Below, in pieces: positions 21,832 to 47,583 of a stretch of DNA of 64,000 nucleotides. The position numbers and the translations under genes are program-made. Source of the stretch: Candidatus Saccharimonadia bacterium (lineage in GTDB: Bacteria; Patescibacteriota; Saccharimonadia; UBA4664; SCTI01); NCBI GenBank assembly GCA_046597065.1, contig JBKJLI010000002.1, forward strand, positions 52,071 through 116,070, written 5' to 3'. The notes beneath the pieces are model-generated. The model was given only the letters and a program-made list of their open reading frames with translations. It made no database searches and was not told the DNA's origin. The first letter of the stretch is position 1. Each line of letters starts with the position of its first letter.

Positions 21832-21980
21832 AGCAGATCCTTCCAGTGAGTTCTCTTAATCCGAAGACTTAGCAATAACAAAGTACCATAAAAGTATAGT
21901 AAGTCAAGCAGAAATTAGTAAATTCTTACTGAAGTGCAACATAAGCAGTAAAAACTATCGCGCAGTAGGAATAATACCTC

Positions 21981-22090
21981 ATGACAACCGATCAAATCCG
22001 CTCAAAAATATTTAGAGTTTATGCAGGCAAAGGGGCATACGATAGTGTCATCGGCTCCGGTGTCGGGTAGCATAGTTGCAGCTGAGGCGA
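21981..22090 (+). pseudogene. Degenerate duplicate of the alaS 5' end (about 85% identity over ~110 nt, frameshifted), followed by a fragment resembling the 5' half of the adjacent tRNA
   Basis: atgacaaccgatcaaatccgctcaaaaatatttagagtttatgcaggcaaagg... against the alaS start atgacaaccgatcaaattcgctcaaaatttttagagttcatgaagctaaaagg. The 22108-22147 fragment resembles tRNA positions about 22230-22270. Confidence 0.6.
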
Positions 22091-22275: not shown

Positions 22276-22351
22276 CGGATGAGCCAGCCAGACCCACAAC
22301 GAGTATTTCAAATCAAGATTAAATCCCGGTTAAACTGATACAATAATTCTG

Positions 22352-24157
22352 ATGACAACCGATCAAATTCGCTCAAAATTTTTAGAGTTCATGAAGCTAA
22401 AAGGTCACACCATCGTGCCGTCGGCGCCGGTGTGGTTGGCTGATGACAAGTCAACGCTGTTTACCAGCGCCGGCATGCAGCCAGTGGTTCCATACCTATT
22501 GGGCAAAAAACATCCTGGTGGCAGCCGAATTGCCAATAGTCAAAAATGTATCCGCACCGATGATATCGAGGAGGTGGGGGACAACCGCCACTTAACTATG
22601 TTCGAAATGCTCGGAAACTGGAGTCTGGGAGATTATTTTAAGAATGAGTCAATTGCATGGAGTTTTGAATTTTTAACGGCTAAGCAGTGGTTGGGGCTTG
22701 ATCCAAAGCGCCTTTATATAACGGTTTATGAAGGCGACGTTCAAGTACCACAAGATGATGAGGCGGCGGAAATTTGGGTAGAGCAGTTTAAGGCCGTAGG
22801 CATTGAGGCTAAACTAGGTGGCCGTATCCAAACCCGCGGTGCCAGCGATAACTGGTGGGCTTTAGGCCCAACTGGACCCTGCGGACCAGACACCGAGATA
22901 TTTTATTATATCGGCAATGATGAAGATCCAAAATTTGCCGATAGCGATGAGTTTATCGAAGTTTGGAACAACGTATTTATGGTTTACGACCGCCAGGGCG
23001 AGGGCGACTTACGCGACTTGCCAGCCAAAAATGTAGATACCGGTATGGGGCTAGAGCGTATAGCGGCGGTGGTTCAAGGTGCCTCAAGTGTTTTTGATAC
23101 CGATCTAATGCACCAGATCATATTGCGAATATTGGGGGTGGCCGGACACCACTTTGAGCCGGTCTTTCGCGAAACTGATCACGATTTGGGTCGGGCGGCG
23201 CGGATTATTACCGATCACTTGCGCAGTGGGGTGTTTATGGCGGCCGATGGTGTGGTACCAAGCAACACCGATCGTGGTTATGTCATGCGCCGGCTGCTGC
23301 GCAGAGCTATCCGCCAGGGGTTGGTGCTAGGTATTCGCAGCGATCTTTTCGTTCAGGTCGCACCAAATATTATCGAGTTGTATAAAGCTGCATTCCCGGA
23401 GCTAGGCCAGAATCAGCAGACAATTATTGCTACCCTAGAAAAAGAAGAGCAGCTGTTCCGTAAAACTCTAGATAATGGTGTGCGCGAGCTAAAGAAGTTA
23501 GCGGCTGATGGCTTGAGTGGGCGAGATATATTTACGCTGTTTGATACTTATGGCTTTCCTCCAGAACTATCGGTTGAAGACGCAATCAGAGAAAGTATAG
23601 TTGTTGATTCGGGCTGGCAAGACCAGTTTAATCGTTTAATGGATGAACAAAAGCAGCGTTCACGTACAGCGGGAGCGGGGGAGTTTAAGGGTGGCTTGGC
23701 CGATCATGAACCAGCTACAGTACGACATCATAGTGCCACCCATTTAATGTACCAGGCACTAAGACAGGTTTTAGGCAAAGAGGTGGTGCAGCGCGGTTCA
23801 AACGTTAACTCTGAGCGTTTGAGGTTCGACTTTTCGCATGATACTAAGCTTACGGATGATGAAAAGCAGCACATTGAAGCAATCGTAAATGAGCAGATTA
23901 AAAATGACTTAAAAGTTTGGTTCGAAGAGCACCCCACCGATGAGGCTTTTAAGTTGGGGGCTAAAGGTGCTTTTGGGGATAAGTACGGTGATACGGTAAA
24001 GGTCTATTTTATGGGCAAAGACGGTGATGAGCCATTTAGTGTTGAGATTTGTGGCGGACCTCACGTTGATCGCACTGGCGATATGGGGCACTTTAGAATT
24101 CAAAAAGAGGAATCATCGAGTGCCGGAGTGCGCCGCATAAAAGCTAAATTAGAGTAG
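22352..24157 (+). CDS. alaS: Alanyl-tRNA synthetase, short form (catalytic and editing regions, no C-terminal C-Ala domain)
   Basis: 601 aa; class II AlaRS N-terminal motifs; editing-domain HSATHLM...CGGPHV. Extended -10 TGATACAAT 8 nt before the ATG. Confidence 0.9.
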   Translation: MTTDQIRSKFLEFMKLKGHTIVPSAPVWLADDKSTLFTSAGMQPVVPYLLGKKHPGGSRIANSQKCIRTDDIEEVGDNRHLTMFEMLGNWSLGDYFKNESIAWSFEFLTAKQWLGLDPKRLYITVYEGDVQVPQDDEAAEIWVEQFKAVGIEAKLGGRIQTRGASDNWWALGPTGPCGPDTEIFYYIGNDEDPKFADSDEFIEVWNNVFMVYDRQGEGDLRDLPAKNVDTGMGLERIAAVVQGASSVFDTDLMHQIILRILGVAGHHFEPVFRETDHDLGRAARIITDHLRSGVFMAADGVVPSNTDRGYVMRRLLRRAIRQGLVLGIRSDLFVQVAPNIIELYKAAFPELGQNQQTIIATLEKEEQLFRKTLDNGVRELKKLAADGLSGRDIFTLFDTYGFPPELSVEDAIRESIVVDSGWQDQFNRLMDEQKQRSRTAGAGEFKGGLADHEPATVRHHSATHLMYQALRQVLGKEVVQRGSNVNSERLRFDFSHDTKLTDDEKQHIEAIVNEQIKNDLKVWFEEHPTDEAFKLGAKGAFGDKYGDTVKVYFMGKDGDEPFSVEICGGPHVDRTGDMGHFRIQKEESSSAGVRRIKAKLE

Positions 24158-32247: not shown

Positions 32248-32323
32248 GGGGATATAGCTCAGCTGATAGAGCGCTGCATTCGCATTGCAGAGGTCGAGGG
32301 TTTGATTCCCTCTATCTCCACCA
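32248..32323 (+). tRNA. tRNA-Ala (anticodon CGC)
   Basis: GGGGATATAGCTCAGCTGATAGAGCGCTGCATTCGCATTGCAG...CCA; G3:U70; anticodon loop TTCGCAT. Confidence 0.9.
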
Positions 32324-32327
32324 GGAA

Positions 32328-32729
32328 TTATTCTTCAATTGGCCAGAAATCGGGTATAAAATCAACGTCGTCCATGACATTTTCGCTATGCGTAGAGATG
32401 ATTAAAAGCTCAACGTCTTCGGGGCCATCATTCCAGGTTGATTGGGCATTGCCGGGGTCTATCCGCAAAATGTCGTTCGGGCCTAAATCGATAATGTCGT
32501 CATTTACCTTCACTTGCACCTTGCCGGAAATTACAAAAATTACCTCTTCTTGGGTTTTATGCAAATGTCCACGGCTTCCCTTGCCTCCAGTCTTGGCTGG
32601 CATGTGCCGGTGAGTTAGGGCGACTTGCCTAGATTCAAGCGGTTTTTTGATGGTTTTGAAATGGCCGGGGTAGTCGCCAGAAATGTCGGGCACCTGGCTA
32701 AGGGATAATTTTTTGTAGCCTTTTTGCAT
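32328..32729 (-). CDS. Cupin-domain protein (start taken at the internal Met with AGGAGG SD; ~133 aa)
   Basis: Cupin-like beta-barrel motifs (HRHMPAKTGGK...EEVIFVISGK). SD AGGAGGccgatATG. Confidence 0.7.
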   Translation of the reverse strand: MQKGYKKLSLSQVPDISGDYPGHFKTIKKPLESRQVALTHRHMPAKTGGKGSRGHLHKTQEEVIFVISGKVQVKVNDDIIDLGPNDILRIDPGNAQSTWNDGPEDVELLIISTHSENVMDDVDFIPDFWPIEE

Positions 32730-32806: not shown

Positions 32807-32968
32807 ATGGCAAGAAACTTTCTAGATGAAGATGAGCATAAAAAAAGCGTTGGCTATACCGACGGCTTTCGTTTTGGCTTCGGCTTCTTCATCGCTAACT
32901 TGATCGGTATCACCATGGTCATAGCACTGGCGGCCGGCATTAATATATTGCTGCTGCACGCTCGCTAA
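32807..32968 (+). CDS. Possible leaderless small membrane protein (53 aa), not in the ORF track
   Basis: TGTTACAAT lies 6 nt before the ATG. Translation MARNFLDEDEHKKSVGYTDGFRFGFGFFIANLIGITMVIALAAGINILLLHAR. Confidence 0.3.
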   Translation: MARNFLDEDEHKKSVGYTDGFRFGFGFFIANLIGITMVIALAAGINILLLHAR

Positions 32969-33014
32969 CTGGTTGCATCCAGTTGTGATTTTTGGTAGAT
33001 TTACTTGGTTCCAC

Positions 33015-33087
<73 letters not shown>

Positions 33088-33090
<3 letters not shown>

Positions 33091-33104
33091 TTGCACTTAT
33101 GCTT
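33088..33104 (+). repeat. Copy 1 of the CCATTGCACTTATGCTT motif (overlaps the tRNA-Ala CCA end)
   Basis: 17/17 identical to the copy at 45643-45659; 16/16 core shared with 33708-33723. Confidence 0.8.
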
Positions 33105-33148
33105 TCCTTTGATAGTATGGGATTAATAACCTCAAAGGAATAAAAACG

Positions 33149-33664
33149 ATGAGTAATCCAGAAAAAGATACCCAAGTCCCTTCAAGTGGTGAGTCGACTA
33201 CGGATTATTCTCAACTCATGGAACAGGCTAAAGCTGAGAATAGAGGCGCAGAAGACTTGGCAGATGCAACTTCGCCTCGCGAAAAAGCGATCGAGGCAAT
33301 TATTGATGAGAGGGTTGCCGAATTTAAGGATAAAAATCCTAATGCAACTGAACAAGCCATTGATGGGGTCCGCAGGGCACAAGCCAGTGTCATCAGCAGG
33401 CTAATGGAAATGGGGGATCCAGATACACAAATACACCAGTTGTACGCAGATAGGTACAAAGAAAACGCTGAACATTGGAGGCAAAAACTTGAAGCTGGCG
33501 GCTTAAGTGGGGTCGAAGAGGCAAAAGGTAGAGAAGCATTAGCTCATTTTGAGAAAGAAGCACAAGATCGTCAGGACATGGCAGATGGAAAACGCGTAGG
33601 ATCAGGCGACCACGATATTGAGGCAAGTCGCTTGAAGATGCAGGGGATAAATCGAAAAAGATAG
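33149..33664 (+). CDS. Hypothetical acidic/charged protein (171 aa) flanked by two copies of the ATTGCACTTATGCTT motif
   Basis: SD AAAGGAA upstream; no recognisable domain. Confidence 0.5.
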   Translation: MSNPEKDTQVPSSGESTTDYSQLMEQAKAENRGAEDLADATSPREKAIEAIIDERVAEFKDKNPNATEQAIDGVRRAQASVISRLMEMGDPDTQIHQLYADRYKENAEHWRQKLEAGGLSGVEEAKGREALAHFEKEAQDRQDMADGKRVGSGDHDIEASRLKMQGINRKR

Positions 33665-33707
33665 AAATATTTTGGTTTCAATTTAAATAGATTGCAGAAT
33701 CTCGATC

Positions 33708-33724
33708 ATTGCACTTATGCTTAT
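33708..33724 (+). repeat. Copy 2 of the motif (CATTGCACTTATGCTTATGATAG), followed by TTATAA and the ATG of the next gene
   Basis: Exact 16-mer shared with copies 1 and 3. Confidence 0.8.
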
Positions 33725-33738
33725 GATAGAATTATAAG

Positions 33739-34512
33739 ATGTTAAAGAGACTTCTTCGTATCAGATTATCGGTTATGGCGGCGATATTCTTCGGCTTCTT
33801 TATTCTGCTCTTATCATTTGTAAAACAACAGCAACTTACTGCAGGTCAGTTGGCACTATTTTCGGTAAACTCATTTTTGTTCGGCTATTATTTTAACCCA
33901 TTGCTGGGCCGAGCCGAAAATCGCGTGGCTTCATTAAACCGCGCGACTAGGCAGGAAGCCATGACATTACTAGATGTTCTAACACAGGCGCATTTAATTA
34001 GCCAAAAGGCTCGCCATTCGTTAAAAATTCGCATCAAAGTGTATCTTGAAAGTATTATTGATAACACCAATTTGGGCGCCGATAACGTTTACTACGATGA
34101 GCTGCTGTTTTGGAGCAAGCAAACTAAAGGCGAAGACCCGGCGGTGATGGGTTCAATTTACGACAAACTATCTAGCACTCAAGATAATCGTGATACTATG
34201 GCCAACTTATTTGCGACCAAAATTTATAGCCACGAATGGCTGGTGGCGGGTGTGCTTTTCCTAATTACGGTCTACTTTTCGGTGCAGACGCAGTTTGGAG
34301 ATTCGATATTTTTTGAGCTTATGCTGGCAGTGCTTTGTACCGGACTGTGCATGCTGATGGCAATTCTGCTAAAGTACGCCACATTAACACATAAAGAGGC
34401 TAAAAGGATGTGGACCCCGCTAAAAGAGCTCGACAAGCTACATTTAGATGATGTAACGGCAGAAGAGTCGAGTAAAATAAAGGCTCTTATCGACGCACAG
34501 CCGGTATCATGA
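33739..34512 (+). CDS. Hypothetical integral membrane protein (257 aa)
   Basis: Several hydrophobic segments; no motif recognised. Confidence 0.5.
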   Translation: MLKRLLRIRLSVMAAIFFGFFILLLSFVKQQQLTAGQLALFSVNSFLFGYYFNPLLGRAENRVASLNRATRQEAMTLLDVLTQAHLISQKARHSLKIRIKVYLESIIDNTNLGADNVYYDELLFWSKQTKGEDPAVMGSIYDKLSSTQDNRDTMANLFATKIYSHEWLVAGVLFLITVYFSVQTQFGDSIFFELMLAVLCTGLCMLMAILLKYATLTHKEAKRMWTPLKELDKLHLDDVTAEESSKIKALIDAQPVS

Positions 34513-35819
34513 GTGAAAAGTTAAAAAAGTTTTTCCGACTGGCGGTGGCTCGGGTTCTATTTTGGCAGCTTCGACGATTAATTAAGCAACAGCAGATAAA
34601 GGTGGTTGCCGTTGCCGGTAGTGTCGGAAAGACAACTACCAAGCTGGCTATTGCCAAGGTTCTTGAGGCAAAATATCCGGGCAAAGTGTTGGCTCATTCT
34701 GGCAACTTCAACATGGAAATAAGCGTTCCGCTGTCGGTGTTCGACCTGCCACTGCCGCGATCGCTGATGAACCCGCTGGCATGGGTTATGCGCTGGTGGC
34801 AAATAGAGGGCATTATCAATCGAGAAAAGTATCCTTATAAATACGTTGTTGTAGAGTTGGGAATTGACCGAGTTGGACAGATGGGGTTTTACGCCTCCCA
34901 GCTAAAGCCCGATGTTGGCGTGCTTACAGCAATTGCCCCAGAGCATATGGAGTATTTTGGCAATATAGAAACAGTTGGTCGAGAAGAGTTTGGAATCATT
35001 CCAGCCTCTAAAGTGGCGTTGCTAAACGGTGAAGACACCGAAATTGCCAAATTGCTACAGGATTATCATGAACCCATCCAAACTTATGGAGTTAAAAATG
35101 GTGTGTTTCATTTTAAGGACATACAGCGCAGCCATGATCTTAAATTAAGCGGTGAATTATCCTTAGCAGAAGGCAAAATAAGGGTTAAAACTCAAATAAT
35201 CAGTGCAACTGGTTTGGCGGCGCTAGCGGCGGCGGCCGGAGTGGGCGAAGAGTTGGGTTTGGATTTTGCAGAGATAAAGCAGGGGATAGAATTATTTGCC
35301 CCAGTATCCGGCCGTATGCAGTTGCTTCTAGGCAAAAATGACTCACTAATTTTAGATGATAGCTATAATTCAAGCCCAAATGCCACCAAGGCAGCAATCG
35401 AAACGTTGTTGGAATTACAAACCAGTGGCCGGAAAATTGCCATACTTGGCAGCATGAATGAGCTAGGTGAAACTAGTGCTAAAGCTCATCGTGCTCTGGG
35501 CAAACAGGCAGCCAAAGTAGATTTATTGGTGACGATCGGCAAGGAGGCGGGAAAGCACTTAGTCGCTGGGGCGGCCGAAAATGGAGAAAAAGCCGATCAC
35601 ATTCACAGCTTTGACTCCCCCTTTGCGGCTGGACGCTTTGTAGTAGGGATCTTGCAGCCAGGGGATGTTGTAATGGTAAAGGGCTCGCAAAACCGAGTTT
35701 TTAGCGAAGAAGCCGTCGCATTACTACTAGCAAAATCCGCTGATCGCAGCAAACTGGTGCGCCAGGGCACTGAATGGATGAAAATAAAACGCGAGCAGTT
35801 TGAGGATGCTGATGAGTAA
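34509..35819 (+). CDS. murF: Mur ligase family, MurF-like (UDP-MurNAc-tripeptide--D-Ala-D-Ala ligase)
   Basis: VAGSVGKTTTKLAIAKVL P-loop; LLDDSYNSSPNATKAAIETL motif. Confidence 0.75.
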   Translation: MSEKLKKFFRLAVARVLFWQLRRLIKQQQIKVVAVAGSVGKTTTKLAIAKVLEAKYPGKVLAHSGNFNMEISVPLSVFDLPLPRSLMNPLAWVMRWWQIEGIINREKYPYKYVVVELGIDRVGQMGFYASQLKPDVGVLTAIAPEHMEYFGNIETVGREEFGIIPASKVALLNGEDTEIAKLLQDYHEPIQTYGVKNGVFHFKDIQRSHDLKLSGELSLAEGKIRVKTQIISATGLAALAAAAGVGEELGLDFAEIKQGIELFAPVSGRMQLLLGKNDSLILDDSYNSSPNATKAAIETLLELQTSGRKIAILGSMNELGETSAKAHRALGKQAAKVDLLVTIGKEAGKHLVAGAAENGEKADHIHSFDSPFAAGRFVVGILQPGDVVMVKGSQNRVFSEEAVALLLAKSADRSKLVRQGTEWMKIKREQFEDADE

Positions 35820-36393
35820 ACCAATCGAGCGCTTTACCCTGCAATCGATGAATCAGCGACTAGGCGCCGACGAGGCTAAGCGCTACTGTCTGCCATTATG
35901 CTTCTACATGTTGCTACGTGCGGCAGATAAGATTGATCCAAATTTTAGCCACATCGATTTTTGCGCCGATATCAGTCGTGAAGCCTTTAGCACAACTAAC
36001 TCCGATTGGAGTCGACCGGCAATGTCTAAACTGGTGCGAAAAAAGTACGGCGTCGACGTAATTTCGTGGCATCTTAAGGGCGGTGGCAACATAGAGCCAA
36101 TGGTAAAGTCGGGCTACGTAGATTCTACGGTTGAAATTGAGTTTTTTCAGCGACAGATTTTAGATAAAAGTGTTGAACAGGTGGTGCGTTCGGGTATGCC
36201 GGTGATCGTAACCATGTCGGGCGGCTTTGACCACGGTGGTAGTAACATTCATGCGATTATTATCGCAAGTTGGAGCGATGAGGAGGTTGTGATAGTTGAT
36301 CCAGATGAACGTAACCCTAAAAATCGATATCAGCCGGACTATATTCAACGATTTATTAGCACAAATGGCGCCGGAACCATCATCCTGCCCTAG
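35800..36393 (+). CDS. Hypothetical protein with a papain-like Cys...His...Asp arrangement (C39/BtrH-like peptidase fold?)
   Basis: RYCLPLC near the N-terminus; HAIIIASW...DPDERNP near the C-terminus. Start uncertain. Confidence 0.4.
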   Translation: MRMLMSKPIERFTLQSMNQRLGADEAKRYCLPLCFYMLLRAADKIDPNFSHIDFCADISREAFSTTNSDWSRPAMSKLVRKKYGVDVISWHLKGGGNIEPMVKSGYVDSTVEIEFFQRQILDKSVEQVVRSGMPVIVTMSGGFDHGGSNIHAIIIASWSDEEVVIVDPDERNPKNRYQPDYIQRFISTNGAGTIILP

Positions 36394-36429
36394 CCTCAAT
36401 CTGTCAGGCTTCTGGTACAATACGAAGCA

Positions 36430-38850
36430 ATGAACAAGTATGATCCCAAGGCTCTAGAGCCCAAGTGGCAGCAAATCTGGGCCGACACCAAGCTGTTCCA
36501 GGCTACCGAAAAGCCGGGCGCCGATAAACGTTATATTATCGACATGTTTCCCTACCCATCGGGCGTCGGTTTGCATGTGGGCCATGTGCGCAACTTTTCG
36601 ATCAGTGACACCTTTGCGCTGTATCAGCGGCAGTTGGGCAAGAACGTTATCCGCACGGTTGGGTTTGATGCCTTTGGTTTGCCCACCGAAAACTACGCCA
36701 TTAAAACTGGTATTTCGCCGCAGCAAGCCACAACCGATCAGGTAAAGGTATTTAAGGGCCAGCTAGAACGGTTAGGCATGAGTTACGACTGGGAGCGCGA
36801 GGTGCTAACCAGCGATCCAAAGTACTACCGCTGGACGCAGTGGATCTTTTTACAGCTGCTAAATAAAAAACTGGCCTACCAAAAAGAGAACTTACAATGG
36901 TGGTGCGAGCATGACCAAACGGTACTGGCCGATGAGCAGGTGGTAAATGGTCGGTGCTGGCGCTGCGAAAACCCGGTTGTTAAAAAATCATTAAAGCAGT
37001 GGTTCTTTAAGATTACCGACTATGCCGATGAGCTGCTTGAGGGCTTGGAAGATCTAGACTGGCCGGAAAAGATTAAATCTCAACAGCGCAACTGGATTGG
37101 TCGCAGCGTTGGGGCTGAGATTAAGTTTGCGGTTGATGGTTCGGAAGCTGAGATAAGTGTTTTCACAACTCGGGTGGATACGCTGTTCGGCGCGACCTTT
37201 ATGGCGCTGGCACCCGAGCATGAGCTGGTTCAGAAGCTGACTACCGCCGATTATAAATCTGAGGTTGAGGCCTACGTTAAATCTACTGATGCCAAGACCG
37301 AGATTGAGCGGATGAGTACCGATCGTGAAAAAACCGGGGTGTTTACTGGCGCTTATGCTGTTAATCCCGCTACCAAAGCCAAAATTCCGATCTGGGTGGC
37401 CGACTACGTGCTGGCCGGTTACGGTAGTGGCGCGGTGATGGCGGTGCCGGCTCATGACGCTCGCGACCACGAGTTTGCGACCAAGTTTAAGCTGCCAATT
37501 CGCAAGGTGGTCGAGTCAGAGGAAGAGAATTACCTCGGCGAGGGCCCATTGGTTAGCTCTGGGGAGTTTTCTGGAAAGCAATCATCTGAGGCCCGCGAAT
37601 CAATGACCAAAGCCTTTGGCGCCGAGCGCGTTAACTACAAAATGCGCGATTGGCTAATAAGCCGCCAGCGTTATTGGGGCGCGCCGATCCCAGTAGTTCA
37701 CTGTAAAAACTGCGGTGTTGTTCCGGTGCCCGAAGATCAGCTACCGGTTGAGCTGCCACCGCTGGAGTCTTACGAGCCGGCCGGCGATGGCCGCTCGGCG
37801 CTGGCGCGGGCCACGGACTGGCTGCACGTTGACTGCCCCAAGTGCGGTGGCAAGGCCGAACGCGAAACCGACACCATGGATGGCTACGCTTGCAGTAGTT
37901 GGTACTTTTTGCGCTATCTTGATCCGCACAACTCCAACGAGGCATTTAATAAGCAGATTGCAGACTATTGGATGCCGGTGGATATCTACGTTGGTGCCGA
38001 CCACGCGGTTGCCCATTTACTGTATGCCCGTTTTTGGACCAAGTTCTTTGCCGATCAAGGCTTGCTAAGCGTGCGCGAGCCGTTTAAGGGGCTGCGCTAT
38101 AATGGCTACATTTTGGCTCCAGACGGGACAAAAATGAGTAAGTCTAAGGGCAATGTGGTCGACCCACTCGATTTGATTAACCAGGGTTACGGCGCCGACG
38201 CTTTGCGACTTTATGAGCTGTTTATCGGTCCATACGAACAAAACATTAACTGGAACCCAACCGGCATTGATGGCACCAAGCGCTTTATAAACCGAGTGTT
38301 TGCGCTAGTTCAAGATCACTTGGCGGCTCAGGGCGCTAGTTCGACTACAATCCCCACTCTCGAAACTGCCTTAGCGCAAACGGTGCATCGGGTCACAAAG
38401 AAAGTGACTATCGACCTAGAGTCTTTTACCTTAAACACCCCGATCGCGGCCATGATGGAGGCGGTTAATGAAATGTACAAACTTAAAGTCGACCTACCGC
38501 TTGGCAGTGAGGCCTGGGAACGGGCGTTGCGCCAACTCGTCCAAATCCTAGCTCCATTCGCCCCACACGTTACCGAGGAGCTATGGCAGCAGCTTGGTGG
38601 CGAGGGCAGCGTGCACGTAGCAGCATGGCCAAAATGGGATGATCAATTGGTGAAAGAAGAACTGGTTACGGTCGTCGTCCAGGTAAACGGTAAGGTCCGT
38701 GCAACTCTGGAACTGCTGGCAGGTGCAAGCGAAGAGGATGCGACGAAAGCCGCTCACGCGAATGAAAATGTTAAGAATATGCTCCAGGGTAAAAAAATCG
38801 TCAAGACAATTTATGTTAAGGATAGAATTTTAAACTTGGTGATCAAGTAA
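36430..38850 (+). CDS. leuS: Leucyl-tRNA synthetase
   Basis: PYPSGVGLHVGHVRN (HIGH) and KMSKSKGN. Extended -10 TGGTACAAT 10 nt before the ATG. Confidence 0.95.
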   Translation: MNKYDPKALEPKWQQIWADTKLFQATEKPGADKRYIIDMFPYPSGVGLHVGHVRNFSISDTFALYQRQLGKNVIRTVGFDAFGLPTENYAIKTGISPQQATTDQVKVFKGQLERLGMSYDWEREVLTSDPKYYRWTQWIFLQLLNKKLAYQKENLQWWCEHDQTVLADEQVVNGRCWRCENPVVKKSLKQWFFKITDYADELLEGLEDLDWPEKIKSQQRNWIGRSVGAEIKFAVDGSEAEISVFTTRVDTLFGATFMALAPEHELVQKLTTADYKSEVEAYVKSTDAKTEIERMSTDREKTGVFTGAYAVNPATKAKIPIWVADYVLAGYGSGAVMAVPAHDARDHEFATKFKLPIRKVVESEEENYLGEGPLVSSGEFSGKQSSEARESMTKAFGAERVNYKMRDWLISRQRYWGAPIPVVHCKNCGVVPVPEDQLPVELPPLESYEPAGDGRSALARATDWLHVDCPKCGGKAERETDTMDGYACSSWYFLRYLDPHNSNEAFNKQIADYWMPVDIYVGADHAVAHLLYARFWTKFFADQGLLSVREPFKGLRYNGYILAPDGTKMSKSKGNVVDPLDLINQGYGADALRLYELFIGPYEQNINWNPTGIDGTKRFINRVFALVQDHLAAQGASSTTIPTLETALAQTVHRVTKKVTIDLESFTLNTPIAAMMEAVNEMYKLKVDLPLGSEAWERALRQLVQILAPFAPHVTEELWQQLGGEGSVHVAAWPKWDDQLVKEELVTVVVQVNGKVRATLELLAGASEEDATKAAHANENVKNMLQGKKIVKTIYVKDRILNLVIK

Positions 38851-38899
38851 CGGCTTGTAAACCAGATCAAAATCGGGTATAGTCGGGCCTAAGAGTGCA

Positions 38900-39325
38900 A
38901 TGCAAATCGACATCAACCATCTATTAAGAGCCGAGACGGGCGTACGTGATACTTACGAGATTGACGGCGAGCGTCCGGATCTAGAGGATGTGGTGTTGAA
39001 AGCTCCGATCACCGGATCGATCACCGTTATGCGGACGCGAGATGGTATCGAGATGAACGGCCGTTTAAGCGCGACCGTTGAAATAGAGTGTGATCGTTGT
39101 TTGCGCCCTTTCGAGTATCAGCTCGAATATCCTCTGGCGGCTTGTTTTGCTGAAAAGCCGGATGAGGATCAGTTTGCGATTGATCGTTACGGCAAAATCA
39201 ACATTGATGAGGCCGTTCGCCAAGACTTACTGGTTCGACTGCCCCAGCAACGGCTTTGCCAAGAAGACTGTAAGGGCATAGAATTAACTAACCAGCAGCA
39301 TAAGGAAACTCATGGCCGTACCTAA
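38900..39325 (+). CDS. YceD/DUF177 family protein (large-subunit rRNA accumulation protein)
   Basis: CxxC...CxxC pattern; conserved position upstream of rpmF. Confidence 0.8.
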   Translation: MQIDINHLLRAETGVRDTYEIDGERPDLEDVVLKAPITGSITVMRTRDGIEMNGRLSATVEIECDRCLRPFEYQLEYPLAACFAEKPDEDQFAIDRYGKINIDEAVRQDLLVRLPQQRLCQEDCKGIELTNQQHKETHGRT

Positions 39326-39482
39326 GAAACGTACTTCTAAGACCCGTAAGGGCAATCGTCGTAGCCACGACGCAATTACCGCACCACACTTACAAACCGC
39401 CAGCGATGGTATATTAGCTCCTCGCCGCCTGCACAAGGCAATCAGTTTGGGGCTGACTAAATTTGTGCGTAAGGGCCGCTAA
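39312..39482 (+). CDS. rpmF: 50S ribosomal protein L32 (56 aa), not in the ORF track
   Basis: Translation MAVPKKRTSKTRKGNRRSHDAITAPHLQTASDGILAPRRLHKAISLGLTKFVRKGR. Confidence 0.85.
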   Translation: MAVPKKRTSKTRKGNRRSHDAITAPHLQTASDGILAPRRLHKAISLGLTKFVRKGR

Positions 39483-39485
39483 ACA

Positions 39486-39944
39486 ATGGCCTCAAATCGT
39501 CATCTTGGGCGGATAGTGGCGATGCAGACACTTTATGAGTATGACTTTCGTGAAGAGGCCGATGCCGATTTGGACAAAAAGGTGGTACTAGATCGAAACC
39601 TAGGCGAGTTCGATGATGCCATTGATGATAAGAACTTTGTTCATGATTTGGTTTCGGGCGTCGAAGAGCACCAAAAAGCGATTGACGGTATTATTGCACC
39701 AGCAGCACCGGATTGGCCGGTTGACCAGATTGCCAAGATCGATAAGGTGATTTTACGCATCGGTGTCTATGAGCTGTTAATTAAGCGTGATGTACCCCCA
39801 AAGGTAGCCATTAATGAGGCGGTTGAACTGGCCAAAGCCTTTGGTGGCGAGAACTCAAGTAAATTTATTAATGGTGTCTTAGGCACCGTATATCGTGGAA
39901 GTGATGTCTACCAACCAGAAGAAGAAACGCAAAAGTCCGCCTAA
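39486..39944 (+). CDS. nusB: Transcription antitermination factor NusB
   Basis: [10 protein letters not shown]...[10 protein letters not shown] NusB-like motifs. Confidence 0.75.
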
Positions 39945-40389
39945 AGCCCCACGCACTAAAGCGGTAAAAGAGTTTACCGCTGGCGGTATGGTTTTTCGTC
40001 GTACCGGTACCGGCAGCATTGATATATTGATGATCCAGGATCGACTGGGGCGGTGGACGATACCTAAGGGCCACGTGGAAGAGGGTGAGAGCTTAGAGCA
40101 AACGGCAGTGCGTGAGGTGGGGGAGGAAACCGGGTTAACCAAACTAGCGATTAAGGACAAACTTGATAAGATTCACTTCTTTTATCGCAAAGAGGGCAAA
40201 CTTATTTACATGACTACGCACGTATTTTTAATCGAGGCACTGGGTGATACCAACGCATTGGTGCCCGAAAATAGTGAGGGGATTGTTGATGCTAAGTGGT
40301 TCCCATACGCCGAGGCGCTAAAGCTAATTGAGTATAAGGATACGGAGCGACTGTTTAATTTGGGTCTGGCCAAATTGGAGTTGTCATGA
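39895..40389 (+). CDS. NUDIX hydrolase
   Basis: Nudix box [22 protein letters not shown]. Confidence 0.8.
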
Positions 40390-41096
40390 GCGAAATGGTT
40401 GAGACTTTAGATACAGATGTGTTAGCAACAGAGCTAGGCTTCGAATTTAATGATCCAATGATTTTACGCCAAGCCATGACCCACCGCTCTTATTTAAATG
40501 AACATCCTAAAACCGGGCTAGAACATAACGAGCGGCTGGAGTTTTTGGGCGATGCGGTGCTAGAGCTAGTCGTTACCGATTACTTGTATCGAAATTACCC
40601 CAATGCCGAAGGGGATTTAACCAACTGGCGCAGTGCTTTGGTAAAAACTGAGTCTTTGAGTGCGGTGGCTGAAAGACTCGATTTTGATCGGTTTCTAATG
40701 CTGAGCAAAGGTGAAAGCAAAGGCAACGCTCGTAGCCGTGCATTAATTCATGCCAACTGTGTAGAGGCAACCATCGGCGCAATTTATATGGATCAAGGTT
40801 ATGAAGCTGCAAAAAAGTTTGTCACCAACCACATCATCAGCACTCTACCGACTATCTTAAAGGATGGAACTTGGGTTGATCCTAAAAGTCGATTTCAAGA
40901 AGTGGCTCAAGAACAAGAAGGCCACACGCCACACTATCGGGTACTCGAAGAAACCGGACCAGATCATGATAAAATATTTATAGTGGGTGTGTACGTGGGC
41001 GAGCGTCTGTATGGTAAGGGGCAAGGCTCCAGCAAGCAGGCCGCCCAGCAACAGGCTGCTGCCGTTGCTTTGAAAAGCCTCAAGCCATCCAAATAG
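40386..41096 (+). CDS. rnc: Ribonuclease III
   Basis: ERLEFLGDAVL signature; C-terminal dsRBD. Confidence 0.9.
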   Translation: MSEMVETLDTDVLATELGFEFNDPMILRQAMTHRSYLNEHPKTGLEHNERLEFLGDAVLELVVTDYLYRNYPNAEGDLTNWRSALVKTESLSAVAERLDFDRFLMLSKGESKGNARSRALIHANCVEATIGAIYMDQGYEAAKKFVTNHIISTLPTILKDGTWVDPKSRFQEVAQEQEGHTPHYRVLEETGPDHDKIFIVGVYVGERLYGKGQGSSKQAAQQQAAAVALKSLKPSK

Positions 41097-41190
41097 TCTA
41101 ATACTTGCTAAGCGTAAGCGCTTTGTGGTATTACAGAGTTGCAAGACGGCTACATGCCGACCCCGTGTACATCGAAAGAAAGGTGTCACC

Positions 41191-41907
41191 ATGCCCGAAT
41201 ATCGCCGTTTGGTGGTTGTTGCGGGCACCGGTGTGCCTCCTATAGCTGCCCCACTGCTTTACAGGCAGTTTGCCCGGCTGTCGCCAGTTTCAAAGGTGTT
41301 TGCTTTGCCCCGGCTGGGGCTTGGCCATAGTCATGATGCCGCGCTTGATCTGGCTCCGCGAATCCATGAGTATCTGGCGGGTGAAGGCGACGTACTGGGT
41401 GATTCCCAGGGTGGCTACCCGGCTATCAACTATGCCTACAACCACCCCGATGAGGTCCGCCATCTAGTGTTGCTGTCGGTACCGCTAGATGGAACCGGTG
41501 CGGCTCGAATCATTGATACCGCCGGTACGCGCTGTATGCGCCCTGGTAGCCGCTATATCGACAAGATTCGTGGTATGGCTAAGGAGCTGGCCGAGTATCA
41601 GGGCGGCCCCAGGATCATCTGTATCTCCAGTGGCCATGACTACCTGGTGCCCTGGGAATCGGCGTTTTTGCACGCGCACGCCGATAACCCGAGAGTTGTA
41701 AACATTTGCGTGGGGCATTCCGGTACAAAGCCGCCTCATCCGTCGGTTCGGGTCGTGCCAGTTAGGTACGGCGCCGTTCACATGCACCTCTCGGAAGTTT
41801 TTCTACGCGGCACCAGCGGCGTGGTGGCGGTTGAGCTCGGTTATGCCGCCCCAGTGGCCGACGCAAGCTTCGATCTGACCGCCAAGCCAGAACTGGTGCC
41901 GGCGTAA
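41191..41907 (+). CDS. Alpha/beta-hydrolase (GDSQGG nucleophile motif), high GC; start taken at the SD-preceded ATG
   Basis: GxSxG motif GDSQGG; later Asp and His. GC is clearly above the flanks. A terminator hairpin follows at 41913-41965. Confidence 0.7.
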   Translation: MPEYRRLVVVAGTGVPPIAAPLLYRQFARLSPVSKVFALPRLGLGHSHDAALDLAPRIHEYLAGEGDVLGDSQGGYPAINYAYNHPDEVRHLVLLSVPLDGTGAARIIDTAGTRCMRPGSRYIDKIRGMAKELAEYQGGPRIICISSGHDYLVPWESAFLHAHADNPRVVNICVGHSGTKPPHPSVRVVPVRYGAVHMHLSEVFLRGTSGVVAVELGYAAPVADASFDLTAKPELVPA

Positions 41908-41968
41908 GGATCAAAGGGTTCCCTTTCTGGCATGGATGCTAGGAAGGGAACTTTTGCTTTTCACCTGG

Positions 41969-41997
41969 TTGACAGATAAGGCCAAAATCGGTAAAAT
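41969..41997 (+). promoter_or_regulatory. Sigma70-like promoter TTGACA-17-TAAAAT for the rpsP operon
   Basis: Read directly from the sequence. Confidence 0.5.
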
Positions 41998-42031
41998 CTA
42001 ATCCGTTGCTTAAGAGATTTAATCTGAATTA

Positions 42032-42532
42032 ATGTTAGTTATTCGCCTGGCCCGTGGTGGTCGAACCAAATATCCGGTATACCGCATTGTTGCGGCTGAG
42101 TCTTCACGTGCATCGACCGGTAAGTTTGTCGAGATTCTAGGTCAGTACAACCCCCATACTAAGGAATTATCACTTGATAAAGAGCAGATTGCCCGTCGAC
42201 TGGGTCATGGTGCTCAGCCATCAAATTCGGTGGCCAAGCTTTTAAAGCGTGAAGGCGTTAAGTTGCCTGAATGGGTAAAGCTAGAAACCAAGAATAAGGC
42301 CCCTAAAAAGGAGCCGGTTGTTAAGGAAGCAGCGCCGGTAGCAGCAGAAGCATCTACCGAAGAGCCAGTTGCTGAAGAAGTAGCAGAGGCACCGGCCGAA
42401 GAAACTGTAGTTGAATCACCTGCCCAAGAACGAGTAGCCGAGGTCGCTACCGAAAACGCCGCCGAGGTGGCTGAAAACGCTGAACCACCAGCCGAGGATC
42501 AGCCTGCTACCGAGACCACCGAAGCCGCCTAG
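42032..42532 (+). CDS. rpsP: 30S ribosomal protein S16 with an Ala/Glu/Pro-rich C-terminal extension
   Basis: MLVIRLARGGRTKYPVYRIVAAESSRASTGKFVEILGQYNP. Confidence 0.9.
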   Translation: MLVIRLARGGRTKYPVYRIVAAESSRASTGKFVEILGQYNPHTKELSLDKEQIARRLGHGAQPSNSVAKLLKREGVKLPEWVKLETKNKAPKKEPVVKEAAPVAAEASTEEPVAEEVAEAPAEETVVESPAQERVAEVATENAAEVAENAEPPAEDQPATETTEAA

Positions 42533-42596
42533 CATTTTGCTCGCGCCCTCGACCCAAAGTACGCTATTATATCCACAACAGTAACGGCGAGGCAAT

Positions 42597-43031
42597 ATGG
42601 CAGATTTACGCGAAGATTTTGTTAATTATGTGGTAAAGGCGCTGGTAACCAAACCAGATGCAGTAGTTTTAAAAAGAGTCGAAGACGATAAGGGTGAGTA
42701 TCTAGAGCTTACCGTTGATTCGGCCGACATGGGTAAGGTAATTGGTAAGGCTGGCGCAACCGCAAAAAGCTTGCGTACCTTGCTGCGCGGTGTTGGAGCA
42801 AAAGAGGACTTACCTCCATTGCCAATCAAAATTGTTGATCCTGAGGGCAGCGATTTTAAAAAGCCGGTAAAAGATGAACAAGTGGCTGAGCAAGCAGCCG
42901 ATGACGTTGATGCTGCACCCGAGCCAGAGGATGCCCCCAAGGCTGTGGTAGTGCCGGAGGCCGACGATCACAACGAGCTTCATGAACGAACCAAGCGCGA
43001 GGCCGAGGAGTTGGCCGACCTCGAGCTTTAA
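42597..43031 (+). CDS. KH-domain RNA-binding protein (YlqC/UPF0109-like) with an acidic C-terminal tail
   Basis: VIGKAGATAKSLRTLL KH motif; conserved rpsP-KH-trmD context. rimM is absent. Confidence 0.8.
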   Translation: MADLREDFVNYVVKALVTKPDAVVLKRVEDDKGEYLELTVDSADMGKVIGKAGATAKSLRTLLRGVGAKEDLPPLPIKIVDPEGSDFKKPVKDEQVAEQAADDVDAAPEPEDAPKAVVVPEADDHNELHERTKREAEELADLEL

Positions 43032-43046
43032 GCGACAACTGCGAAT

Positions 43047-43721
43047 ATGAGAATAGACATAATCACCTTGTTCCCCGACATGTTCAAGGGCCCGTTCGAT
43101 ATGAGTATGCTGTGGAAGGCTCAAGACAAGGGGCTGGTTAAATTAGCCTTTCATGATTTACGCGATTTTGGCTTAACCGAACGTCGAACGGTTGATGATA
43201 AGCCTTATGGCGGTGGTGACGGCATGCTCTTAAAGGTTGATGTGGTAGTGGCGGCTATCGAGCACGCAAGAAAGCTTAACCCTAAGGCTACGGTAGTACT
43301 GTTATCACCGCAGGGCCCAAGGTTTGAGCAATCTAAAGCTGTTGAGTTATCCGGCCAACCGGGTTTGATTATGGTGGCTGGTCATTATGAAGGATTTGAT
43401 GAGCGGGTCGTAAAATATGCCGATTGCGAGCTGTCGATTGGAGATTATATATTAACCGGAGGCGAACTTGCTGCCATGGTAGTTATAGATGCCGTAGTGC
43501 GGTTACTACCGGGTGTGCTTGGGGGCGAGCAAAGCGCCCACATAGAATCGTTTAGTGATGAATTATTGGAATACCCACAATATACTCGGCCGGTTGAGTT
43601 CCGGGGCGATAAAGTACCCGATGTACTGCAAAACGGTAACCACGCCGACATTATGCGTTGGCGCAGCGAGCAGGCTCAAGTTAAGACCCGCCAAAACCGC
43701 CCTGATCTTATAAAAGAGTAG
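43047..43721 (+). CDS. trmD: tRNA (guanine37-N1)-methyltransferase
   Basis: MRIDIITLFPDMF...; SPOUT-fold motifs. Confidence 0.9.
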   Translation: MRIDIITLFPDMFKGPFDMSMLWKAQDKGLVKLAFHDLRDFGLTERRTVDDKPYGGGDGMLLKVDVVVAAIEHARKLNPKATVVLLSPQGPRFEQSKAVELSGQPGLIMVAGHYEGFDERVVKYADCELSIGDYILTGGELAAMVVIDAVVRLLPGVLGGEQSAHIESFSDELLEYPQYTRPVEFRGDKVPDVLQNGNHADIMRWRSEQAQVKTRQNRPDLIKE

Positions 43722-43724
43722 TTA

Positions 43725-44828
43725 TTACTGCAAGGATTGGAATATTTGCTGGCTAGCGTTTGTAAATGCCTGTGGTGCACTGCCTAGGTTTCCCCAAGGT
43801 CCACTCATTATCGAGACCACATAGGCACCCTTGGGGCCATAGACAATACCGGCGTCGTGAACCAAGCCGTTTAAGTCGCCGGTTTTATGGGCAATGCTAG
43901 TACCGGCGGGAAGCCCGGTTGGTAATCGATCATTAACTATTTGAGCTTTTAATAAGCCAATAAAATTAGTGGTACTGTTTGGGCTTAAGGCGGTGCCTTC
44001 GTATAACTTTTTAAGCAGAAGAGCAACGTCGCTGGCGCTGGTAATTTCGTTGCTATGGGCTTGTAAGCTAGTGTGAGCATAACCGCTAGTACGCAAGGCA
44101 GCATTTTGGCGCTCCCAGCCAACCAAGGTTCCTAATGCCTCGCCACAGGTGTTATCTGAAACCGTGATCATAGTATTAAGGCAATCAGCTACATTTTTTC
44201 CGGTTCCGGGAACGGCCGAACCATAGGTTAGCTTACCGCTATCGATCGCGCGGTAAACCGACTCGGCCACAAACAGTTTGTATAAACTAGCGCTTATCAT
44301 GGGGGCGTCGGCGTTACTGCTGGCAGTTGCCCCAGATGCAAGATCGTAAACGCTGATGCTTACGGGCGCACCAAAGCTGGCGGCAATTTTGGTGATGCTC
44401 GACTGCAAACGGGTTTGAATAACCGATGCGTTACTTGTGGTGGTTTGATCTGCGGGTACGGTTGCGGCGGCTGCAACAGGAGTAGCTGTTTTGGCATTGG
44501 CTTTAACTGCCGACTGCCCTCGGACGTTATAAATAAATAACCCAACACCAATAGCAGCCACCAAAATGGTTGCCGCCATTAGGTAGCTTAAAATTGGGCG
44601 GCGAGCGGCCTCGTAAGTAGCGGCCTCAACTGCAGGTGCAAGTTGAGGCATAGTTATCGCCGCCGGAGTAATTGAGCTTTCGGCTTCAATAATCCTACGA
44701 ATACCATCAATAGCCATGACTGGTCTAGGCCGCTGTAAAGGCCGCACTAAACGCACTGGAATTATATGAACTCCAGCATCAACAGGTTGCACCAGACTCC
44801 GGCGCGAAATTCCATCAACCGCTAACAT
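43725..44828 (-). CDS. Class A beta-lactamase-like / serine hydrolase family protein, membrane anchored (start probably internal)
   Basis: SxxK (SLYK), SDN (VSDNT) and KTG (HKTGD) motifs; TM segment ILSYLMAATILVAAIGVGLFIY. Confidence 0.75.
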   Translation of the reverse strand: MLAVDGISRRSLVQPVDAGVHIIPVRLVRPLQRPRPVMAIDGIRRIIEAESSITPAAITMPQLAPAVEAATYEAARRPILSYLMAATILVAAIGVGLFIYNVRGQSAVKANAKTATPVAAAATVPADQTTTSNASVIQTRLQSSITKIAASFGAPVSISVYDLASGATASSNADAPMISASLYKLFVAESVYRAIDSGKLTYGSAVPGTGKNVADCLNTMITVSDNTCGEALGTLVGWERQNAALRTSGYAHTSLQAHSNEITSASDVALLLKKLYEGTALSPNSTTNFIGLLKAQIVNDRLPTGLPAGTSIAHKTGDLNGLVHDAGIVYGPKGAYVVSIMSGPWGNLGSAPQAFTNASQQIFQSLQ

Positions 44829-44912
44829 GCTTCTATTTAACCACTAGCGGGATACCTGGCGCAAACCTAGCTAAGCTATGTACAATGAAAGTAAGTTAAC
44901 GAGGCCCATATT

Positions 44913-45515
44913 ATGTTTACCGTTCCTGATCTAACATTCGACTTTGACGCTCTTGAACCGCATATCGATGCAAAAACCATGGAGATTCATCATGATAAGC
45001 ATCATGCGGCCTATGTGCAAAAACTTAATGATGCATTAGAGGGTTTTGATGACCTGCTTAAACTCGATGTTGCTGAGCTGTTAGTAAATAATCTCGAAAA
45101 GGTTCCTGAAGCCAGGCGGACTGCCGTTAAAAATAATGGCGGCGGCCACCTAAATCACACCATGTTTTGGACGCTGCTTAGCCCCAATGGAGGTGGTGAG
45201 CCAGATGGCGAACTTGCCGATGCCATCAATAAAGACTTTGGTAGCCTAGATGAGTTTAAAGCCAAGTTTAAAGAGGCAGCCGTGGGTCGATTTGGTAGTG
45301 GTTGGGCATGGCTATGTAAAGACTCCGATGGCCTTCACGTTTGCAGCACCGCCAATCAAGACAATCCACTATTGGATGGTCATACTCCCATCTTGGGATT
45401 AGACGTTTGGGAGCACGCCTACTACCTTAAATACGCCAATAAGCGCCCCGATTATGTAGATGCATTTTGGAATGTGGTCAACTGGGATGAAGTTGCCAAG
45501 CGTTTCGCGGCCTAG
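44913..45515 (+). CDS. sodA: Fe/Mn superoxide dismutase
   Basis: [14 protein letters not shown] motifs. Confidence 0.9.
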
Positions 45516-45570
45516 CCAACTCCTTGAGGCGAGGGCGATAATTTGTTAACATAGCCAGGTTCAAATCTGA

Positions 45571-45645
45571 TGGGGCGTGGCCAAGTGGTAAGGCGCTTGA
45601 TTCTGGCTCAAGAGATCGTAGGTTCGAATCCTACCGCCCCAGCCA
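45571..45645 (+). tRNA. tRNA-Gln (anticodon CUG), U1-A72 start
   Basis: TGGGGCGTGGCCAAGTGGTAAGGCGCTTGATTCTGGCTCAAG...GGTTCGAATCCTACCGCCCCAGCCA. Confidence 0.85.
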
Positions 45646-45660
45646 TTGCACTTATGCTTA
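45643..45660 (+). repeat. Copy 3 of the CCATTGCACTTATGCTTA motif (overlaps the tRNA-Gln CCA end)
   Basis: Identical 16-17-mer to copies at 33088 and 33708. Confidence 0.8.
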
Positions 45661-45700
45661 AATAATGGCATCATCATAATGATATAAAGGGTAGATAGGT

Positions 45701-45991: not shown

Positions 45992-46154
45992 ATATATCAA
46001 TTTTATGATCAAGAATTAAATCAACGGCTAGTCTTTCCCTGATCGTAATCTCGACATCAAAATTTGCTAAGTCATAGCTTAAATTATTTGTTGAAATATT
46101 TACTAATAACTCGCGACTGCTCATTAATATAAATAATTGATATTATATGGGTAA

Positions 46155-47531: not shown

Positions 47532-47583
47532 AAAACTTCTATAATATATAATTGCTATTGGATTGTATTTGAAAGGCGCCCCC

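Follow-up and report, generated by a model that had tools for sequence, protein, structure and literature searches.

Does a short sequence repeated exactly at the 3' ends of transfer RNA (tRNA) genes in a Saccharimonadia bacterium drive the transcription of the genes that follow it, or does it mark the places where genes were inserted? This question is raised by a 64,000-nt stretch of Candidatus Saccharimonadia bacterium DNA (hereafter the window; GenBank assembly GCA_046597065.1, contig JBKJLI010000002.1, positions 52,071 to 116,070 of the forward strand; 48.8% GC, strong + strand gene bias), in which an earlier, sequence-only reading noticed an exact direct repeat present three times, and proposed that it was either a highly conserved promoter module or att-like repeats of a small element targeting tRNA 3' ends. 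Our analysis of the window and of related loci (designated by L numbers) leads us to regard CCA followed by TTGCACTTATGCTT, here called box 1 or simply the box, as the probable invariant junction of a tRNA 3'-end insertion hotspot in this Saccharimonadia lineage, with ORF171, the open reading frame (ORF) enclosed by the first two copies, as one inserted cassette, a reading that we hold with somewhat better than even confidence. The att-like reading explains more of the evidence and is better supported than the promoter reading, and the best reading of the box is that of an att-like cassette junction co-opted as part of a promoter.

The repeat is real and non-random. Over the whole window its 15-nt form, ATTGCACTTATGCTT, occurs without mismatch at 33090-33104, 33708-33722 and 45645-45659, always on the + strand; no copy with one or two mismatches was found in the window, and the four matches with three mismatches are as many as shuffled sequence gives, hence noise. 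For any 15-mer to be present in three exact copies in 128 kb (both strands), the arithmetic expectation is about 3e-4, in agreement with the earlier claim that the repeat is far beyond chance. The exact block common to the three copies measures 16 nt, CATTGCACTTATGCTT, and 17 nt with the CCA in copies 1 and 3, copy 2 having TCA. The features concerned are the following:

33015-33090, + strand: tRNA-Ala(GGC) with encoded CCA, the putative insertion-site anchor (ARAGORN; Rfam RF00005, 65.3 bits)
33082-33104, + strand: proximal (attL-like) junction, the tRNA tail TCTCCACCA followed by box 1 (sequence and repeat search)
33700-33722, + strand: distal (attR-like) junction, a decayed tRNA-Ala tail, TCTCGATCA, followed by an exact box 1
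45571-45645, + strand: tRNA-Gln(CTG) with encoded CCA (ARAGORN and Rfam), at a position that is syntenic (S16-KH-TrmD...SOD) in L182 and L066
45643-45659, + strand: third copy of box 1, including its CCA (exact match search)

As the sequence-only reading had stated, two of the three exact copies abut tRNA 3' ends, and the tRNA coordinates bear out that the CCA ends of tRNA-Ala(GGC) and tRNA-Gln(CTG) overlap the repeat (copies 1 and 3) in identical fashion. Copies 1 and 2 do bracket only one acidic ORF of 171 amino acids, ORF171, the sole long + strand ORF between them; their spacing is 618 nt rather than 617, and the distances from the last repeat base to the start codon, given earlier as 19-45 nt, are 44, 16 and 41 nt for copies 1, 2 and 3, respectively. 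Copies 1 and 2 also belong to a longer repeat, TCTC(C/G)A(C/T)CATTGCACTTATGCTT, identical at 21 of 23 nt, which therefore extends into the tRNA tail, such that direct repeats including a tRNA 3' segment flank the ORF171 cassette. Clearer cases of this arrangement exist in L156 and L219 (GGGCCCTCCATTGCACTTATGCT).

A clue to the nature of this segment comes from the gene beyond copy 2, ORF257, which has 97 homologs (source label Candidatus Saccharimonadia):

33105-33722 (equally 33089-33706, given the repeat), + strand: the 618-bp cassette, absent from L130 (alignment)
33149-33664, + strand: ORF171, the cassette cargo, an acidic orphan with AAAGGA in front (homolog, Pfam and PHROG searches; GC content at third codon positions, GC3)
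33739-34512, + strand: ORF257, a conserved membrane protein with a weak Bestrophin-like match

The contig of the closest ORF257 homolog (80% identity), L130, aligns with the window as the tRNA-Ala 3' half, CCAATGCACTTATGCTT and atgatagaattataagATG, with a single box followed by the ORF257 ortholog and without ORF171; its sequence upstream of the ortholog reads tRNA-Ala...CCAATGCACTTATGCTTatgatagaattataagATG, joining the copy-1 tRNA to the copy-2 flank through one box. Therefore, the ORF171 segment is an indel bounded by repeats, and this alignment shows the 618-bp segment to be flanked by the 23-nt repeat and to have an empty site in a relative; the empty site lacking the 33105-33707 segment, which the sequence-only reading had suggested looking for in related genomes, thus exists. 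ORF171 has a pI of 5.05 (35 D+E versus 26 K+R), matches only itself in a search of 5.8 billion proteins, and has no Pfam or PHROG match; its GC3 is 0.378 versus 0.499 +/- 0.034 in core genes. Since it is an orphan with an atypically low GC3, we favour gain here rather than loss in L130. The polarity of the indel is unproven because the distant ORF257 orthologs examined to polarise it (L131, L132 and L227-L229) do not keep synteny.

The box is not confined to this locus, and the exact 16/17-mer is enriched in Saccharimonadia. A scan of one genome per species located the 16-mer in at least 119 places, 11 of them in Saccharimonadia/Patescibacteria assemblies, and in a metagenome scan about 28 of 93 matches were genuine Saccharimonadia instances, the remaining matches of both scans being unrelated singletons in other phyla. 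The exact box is present in about 35 distinct Saccharimonadia loci, where it directly follows the CCA of at least seven tRNA species (Ala-GGC, Ala-TGC, Gln-CTG, Glu-TTC, Tyr-GTA, Lys-TTT and Arg-TCT) and sits 10 nt past tRNA-Gly-CCC. Its orientation is nearly always that of the tRNA, and an inverted box separates tRNA-Gln(TTG) from its terminator. Comparison of orthologous tRNAs shows 100% conservation of the box and unrelated DNA directly after GCTT, so that the change at the box end appears as a sharp boundary with no gradient. The sets with an identical box are:

tRNA-Gln: the window, L182 and L066 (L066 from Patescibacteria group bacterium UBA6017; both loci syntenic with the window)
tRNA-Tyr: L094, L151 and L163
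tRNA-Lys: L156 and L219

The Logan contig SRR31159421_590157 (L128/L129; 12,609 bp), which was assembled independently, corresponds to 33037-45645 of the window and, by coordinate arithmetic, ends at the tRNA-Gln CCA, one base before the box, an end that may reflect alternative post-CCA sequences in the sample.

Related loci also contain 12 additional box copies with one or two mismatches, against 0.2 expected, and these build arrays downstream of tRNA-Gln, tRNA-Lys, tRNA-Asn and others, with single-gene cassettes of 0.3-1.8 kb lying between successive copies. The cargo is of accessory type across loci (EEP nuclease, MazE/Doc pair, MazG-like, TM2 and PLD-like proteins), and many cassettes have their own terminator and leaderless promoter. 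Two arrays illustrate this content:

L098, five junctions and about five cassettes: a hypothetical protein; an EEP nuclease; a MazG-like protein; a hypothetical protein with a MazE/Doc pair; small membrane proteins
L134: Fic/Doc, DUF218, PLD-like and cupin genes

In front of the distal copies stands a conserved arm, AGTTCGAACnnCGTnCACnAnGnCCAG-CCA, whose final 6-9 nt equal the local tRNA tail and which takes the form of a pseudo-tRNA right arm, AGTTCGAAC-N18-CCA. The spacing from GTTCGAA to CCA is 19 nt in all modules versus 14 nt in real tRNAs, which rules out that the distal copies are plain decayed tRNA 3' halves. A position weight matrix of the right arm alone retrieves more copies, far above background, and each arm found in this way ends in CCA followed by box 1, an alternative box 2 (GGAATTAT) or an inverted box 1, the same three post-CCA boxes that real tRNAs carry. 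The MazG-like cassette is present in both L098 and L134, with proteins 88% identical and different neighbours on both sides, and the homology stops exactly after ...GGCCAGCCA; therefore, cassettes are discrete units with their boundary immediately after CCA. The indel with its empty site, the arrays and this exact cassette boundary are direct observations. They modify the att-like reading as it was originally formulated: the empty site of L130 and the arrays bounded by tRNA tail and box agree with it, whereas the box turns out to be a lineage-wide junction at many tRNAs instead of belonging to one small element.

Two further places in the window carry traces of the same organization:

32248-32332, + strand: tRNA-Ala(CGC) (32248-32323; ARAGORN) followed by box 2, GGAATTATT (32324-32332)
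45660-47550, + strand: low-GC islet after copy 3, with DUF805 (45701-45991; Pfam) and the unannotated ORF162 and ORF255 (GC 0.40 vs 0.49 for the window; DUF805 GC3 0.34)

Box 2, (A)GGAATTAT, also follows tRNA-Asn in L189 and L056 as well as four pseudo-tRNA right arms (the loci with box 2 being L189, L056, L144, L134 and L098), and seems to be another kind of cassette start; beyond it, on the - strand, the cupin gene may be cargo. The islet after copy 3 is, from its composition, probably acquired DNA, and reading of its ends found no right-end module. A PLD-like nuclease gene (L197, 12405-13011; L134, 3017-3472; L093 and L202), with a small ORF in front whose C-terminus is acidic (LLDE[DN]DEG-like in L144 and L209), recurs beside boxes on the opposite strand in several genomes and may be a recurrent cassette or defence-type module. 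Reverse-strand ORFs of L144, L197 and L209 have a common acidic C-terminal motif. A conserved small reverse-strand protein starting at GTGCAATGG (MQWLG...) was considered and rejected, as such ORFs end after 1-45 codons and are not conserved.

In the explanation that we propose, small accessory cassettes, mostly of one gene, would start with the box and end in the conserved right arm, whose last nucleotides would copy the acceptor tail and CCA of the local tRNA. Insertion beside a tRNA would leave direct repeats of the tRNA tail plus box, and repeated insertion would build arrays; ORF171 would be one such cassette at tRNA-Ala(GGC), and tRNA-Gln(CTG) would present the box and then the low-GC islet. 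The process would be a site-specific recombination with a crossover at or near CCA, and the box would persist as the core site of the enzyme involved, which we infer to be encoded elsewhere and to act in trans because our searches gave no recombinase. The TTGCAC of the box would, in addition, give a -35 element to incoming DNA that has TGnTAnnnT 16-17 nt downstream, a configuration that agrees with copy 1 and perhaps with copy 3, but not with copy 2.

The promoter elements on which this last step rests are:

32973-33001, + strand: likely promoter of tRNA-Ala(GGC), TTGCAT (32973-32978), a 17-nt spacer and TGgTAGATT (32993-33001) (sequence inspection)
33091-33096, + strand: likely -35 element, TTGCAC, in box copy 1
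33110-33118, + strand: extended -10 element TGaTAGTAT, 16 nt past TTGCAC, of the predicted ORF171 promoter (sequence and hexamer enrichment across loci)
33724-33741, + strand: TGaTAGAAT (33724-33732), 6 nt and ATG (33739), predicted leaderless promoter and start of ORF257, identical in L130

To judge from the tRNA-Ala promoter, TTGCA(C/T) hexamers likely serve as -35 elements in this organism. Across loci, a -10-like hexamer lies at a spacer of 16-17 nt in 10 of 35 box instances (5 with TG), compared with about 1.5 (0.2) at other offsets, a significant enrichment. On the other hand, a strong hairpin preceded by AAA and followed by a T run comes directly after the box in about one third of the 35 distinct instances, for which a promoter role makes no sense because a terminator follows immediately. 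TTGCAC is likely a -35 element in about a third of instances, copy 1 included, and the earlier promoter reading finds support at copy 1 (TTGCAC-N16-TGaTAGTAT) and statistically across loci. It fails at copy 2: the TTATAA then taken as the -10 element, 17 nt from TTGCAC, is a poor one, and the conserved TGaTAGAAT, 6 nt before ATG in a leaderless layout, is separated from TTGCAC by 12 nt, so that the ORF257 promoter is predicted to be independent of the box hexamer. Copy 3 (TTGCAC-N17-TGgCATCAT, 45666-45674) offers a possible weak promoter. A generic consensus promoter scan called none of the three copies. Many window genes have TGnTACAAT or TATAAT, 6-7 nt and ATG without Shine-Dalgarno sequence (e.g., 5450, 16011, 19468, 22352, 36430, 46764, 53934 and 57005 on the - strand), so that leaderless mRNAs driven from extended -10 promoters seem to be frequent here. 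Elsewhere in the window, an ordinary-looking promoter at 62085-62113 reads TTGCAC-N17-TATGAT with ATGCTTAT in its spacer, and another at 21939 (- strand) has GCTTATG immediately before TTGCAC-N16-TAATTT, that is, the halves of the box in permuted order. A sigma-54 promoter was discarded on inspection, TTGCAC-N5-GC having the wrong GG/GC spacing.

Two sets of observations weigh against the box being a cassette junction. The first concerns its contexts. The loci were gathered by searching the box with CA or CCA attached, which biases their ascertainment toward CCA contexts, and the ORF171 cassette is itself atypical: its right end has no AGTTCGAAC arm, and of the 11 nt that precede TTGCAC only 8 match the tRNA tail. 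The 9-mer CTTATGCTT, which forms the right half of the box, is found outside full boxes 23 times versus 2.4 expected, about ten-fold, at 29552, 51044 and 24721 (- strand) in the window and at 20 sites in related loci; away from tRNAs, 17 of the 23 fall between genes, in the orientation of the genes and with a -10 element 3-18 nt downstream, and one is in a 5' untranslated region. ORF257 orthologs in four lineages, which keep the N-terminus MLKxLL, have diverged box remnants at their 5' end, retained even where the tRNA is absent, and the orthologs of L131 and L228 take their start codon from the ATG of the box. Finally, a tRNA-Tyr followed by box and terminator, a seemingly empty site, is strictly kept in three genomes, and such strict conservation at seemingly empty sites suggests a host function. 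Because of the CTTATGCTT enrichment, of the remnants at tRNA-less ORF257 orthologs and of this conservation, an operator-like role of the box is a live rival or an extra layer.

In its complete form, this rival makes the box first and foremost a transcriptional control element, in which the -35 hexamer TTGCAC is joined to CTTATGCTT, an operator or promoter-proximal site for a conserved factor; the repeats would flank ORF171 for the sole reason that every gene has a copy of its own, and the indel would come from ordinary recombination between promoter copies. The layout of copy 1, the -10-like hexamers enriched at 16-17 nt and often accompanied by TG, and the use of TTGCAT or TTGCAC as -35 element at tRNA-Ala, 62085 and 21939 (- strand) all fit this idea. 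By contrast, it does not account for the terminator hairpins that directly follow about a third of the instances without any -10 element, nor for the inverted box between tRNA-Gln(TTG) and its terminator, and the distance from CTTATGCTT to the -10 element is as variable as 3-18 nt. Nearly every copy, even those distant from tRNAs, is preceded by CCA and a tRNA-like tail or right arm, which a promoter does not need, and in decayed copies the TTG of the -35 element is the most variable part and CACTTATGC the least. We consequently regard a primarily transcriptional function as unlikely.

The second set of adverse observations concerns the enzyme and its site. The searches for a recombinase were negative for the cassettes, for two whole arrays and for the 314 kb of window plus loci. 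The Pfam check covered 146 ORFs within 3.5 kb of boxes, for the 25 most frequent of 131 families, and also the two arrays; phmmer searches of all window and locus ORFs with XerD, lambda Int, Hin and gamma-delta probes, which were approximate, of limited sensitivity and applied to partial genomes, returned no match, and with the same approximate probes neither IntI nor another tyrosine recombinase was detected in window or loci. RNAalifold on 13 aligned modules gave a 3-bp stem of -0.66 kcal/mol with zero covariation, hence no conserved hairpin or palindrome, and inspection of the alignment disclosed no inverted-repeat core, the tRNA tail and the TTATGCTTAAA side not being inverted repeats of each other. 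Among known sites, an attC-like one was rejected, as the RNAalifold result leaves the module without a hairpin with R''/R' cores, and so was a Xer/dif-like one, whose inverted arms are absent; TTATGCTTAAA loosely resembles what we take to be a XerD arm, a weak resemblance.

The negative recombinase searches suit another explanation, namely that the box is a host signal in the 3' trailer of precursor tRNAs (a processing or cleavage site, or an insulator that shields what follows from the strong tRNA promoter), with box and tRNA serving only as perfectly conserved homology anchors for gene gain borne by natural transformation and by homologous or illegitimate recombination, without a dedicated recombinase. 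So do the start of the box exactly after CCA at many tRNAs, its identity at orthologous tRNAs with diverged terminators, and its place between tRNA and intrinsic terminator in the terminator class, where it is therefore transcribed. Yet an RNA signal leaves unexplained the inverted copies, the non-tRNA right arm at a fixed 19-nt spacing, the exact boundary after CCA common to unrelated contexts and the coupling to -10 elements at 16-17 nt; there is also no matching Rfam family, and inspection saw no complementarity to tRNA leaders. A trailer signal seems to us even less likely than the control element, although homology-driven exchange after natural transformation is possible as such. An Rfam scan of the window and 18 loci brought only tRNAs to the gathering score (plus one LOOT RNA elsewhere in L197), and at tRNA-less ccccagCCA sites ARAGORN recognized neither a transfer-messenger RNA nor a tRNA, so that the box was rejected as a known RNA family. 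A DNA uptake sequence, which would be very dense, present in both orientations and not tied to particular gene ends, was likewise rejected: the 64 kb contain three copies, each of them on the + strand and at a tRNA or pseudo-tRNA tail.

A location at tRNA 3' ends, direct repeats that contain the tRNA tail, an empty site and tandem accretion are all features of tRNA-targeted integrases, for which sublocation classes are reportedly distinguished (by Williams, in 2002). The cassettes could then be scars of classical integrase-encoding islands or prophages in tRNA genes, reduced to a gene or two, with the 14-mer as the att identity block of one family. This is very unlikely in our opinion, considering that the above searches found no integrase or fragment of one in the approximately 35 loci, that the same flank is used at seven or more tRNA species and that the uniformly tiny single-gene units, with terminator, leaderless promoter and right arm, look organised rather than decayed. 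Viral contigs provide no box in a meaningful context (eight matches, all in coding or unrelated context), and a phage or prophage att site was discarded for this reason.

If the cassette-junction reading is retained, how does it compare with known systems? Integron arrays (attI/attC) consist of co-oriented single-gene cassettes with one recombination module each, and integrase-less attC clusters exist. The box arrays resemble them in their mostly co-oriented single-gene cassettes with one short module each, in the presence of the same cassette in different arrays and in insertion beside a fixed anchor able to provide transcription. They differ in that the module has no foldable attC hairpin or R''/R' cores, IntI was not found, the anchor is a tRNA 3' end and many cassettes carry their own terminator and promoter. 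Sigma-70 promoters may have an extended -10 element, and mobile elements can form hybrid promoters through -35 elements that face outward from their ends. The box would do likewise where its TTGCAC lies 16-17 nt from TGnTAnnnT (about a third of instances), half a promoter then coming from the end of the inserted unit, whereas its conserved block of 14-16 nt is much longer than a -35 element and is kept where a terminator follows, and the gene after copy 2 has its -10 element at the wrong distance. Tycheposons of Prochlorococcus are tRNA-targeted elements with tandem accretion (10.1101/2020.12.28.424599). They share with the box system insertion at the tRNA 3' end, flanking repeats that are partial tRNA copies, newcomers that push older units distally, flexible accessory cargo in a streamlined genome and empty sites in relatives. 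In contrast with them, box units have no integrase in or near them and are single-gene cassettes of 0.3-1.8 kb; the identity block of the box runs 14 nt past the tRNA and is common to at least seven tRNA species, where a tycheposon type has one integrase per tRNA, and the system adds three post-CCA boxes and the pseudo-tRNA right arm. Xer-dependent dif/pdif modules are described from Acinetobacter plasmids (e.g., PMC6449649, PMC5790767). Their bounding XerC/XerD sites measure about 28 bp, with two inverted arms of 11 bp around a 6-bp centre. The box cassettes and these modules are alike in being small recombinase-less gene modules with short conserved bounding sites, presumably served by a host enzyme in trans, but box plus tail lacks inverted arms, and no Xer-like ORF was seen in window or loci with the approximate probes. 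Our literature search found the motif in no paper in a relevant context and nothing on Saccharibacteria tRNA islands or promoters.

Several additional features of the window are worth recording. A 35-nt direct repeat, 89% identical (21978-22012 and 22349-22383), is a duplication of the 5' end of the gene that begins at 22352 and brackets 371 bp with an unusually long (90-nt) tRNA-Arg(GCG) on the - strand and its terminator; this segment looks like another insertion with target duplication. At 60943-61024, Rfam detects a tRNA (52 bits) that ARAGORN does not call, with 78% identity to 45601-45640 (tRNA-Gln), a T run near the anticodon region and no encoded CCA; it is possibly a pseudogene or a tRNA of unusual type. 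The stretch from the cupin gene to the tRNA-Ala(GGC) promoter contains a 53-codon ORF (32810-32971), shorter than the 60-aa limit of the ORF listing, for a small hydrophobic protein in a leaderless layout (TGtTACAAT-cgcggt-ATG).

The genomes of CPR bacteria and Saccharibacteria are tiny, and the ways in which these organisms gain genes are poorly known. As a tentative proposal, in which we place less than even confidence, Saccharimonadia might possess an integron-like cassette system seated on tRNA 3' ends, composed of a post-CCA box of three types and a 27-nt pseudo-tRNA right arm, with a recombinase encoded elsewhere, or else some unconventional mechanism, performing the exchange immediately after CCA and with the box as a portable -35 element; such a system could be a main route of gene gain in these ultra-small, naturally competent symbionts. 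Relative to tycheposon-like islets and integron arrays, the lack of a linked integrase, the post-CCA box shared by many tRNAs, the pseudo-tRNA right arm and the tiny self-contained cassettes would set it apart, our confidence in the mechanism being moderate. If the box were instead the operator of a regulator, it would define a lineage-wide regulon. If the cassette reading is true, it would provide a testable mechanism for the flexible gene pool of these organisms, that is, the toxin-antitoxin pairs, nucleases, small membrane proteins and orphans located at tRNA tails, and box plus right arm would be a search key for accessory DNA in metagenome-assembled genomes. The junction would also offer a candidate site for integration, or safe harbour, in the newly tractable Saccharibacteria, and the succession of box, terminator, TGnTAnAAT and leaderless ATG would represent a natural compact design of promoter and insulator.

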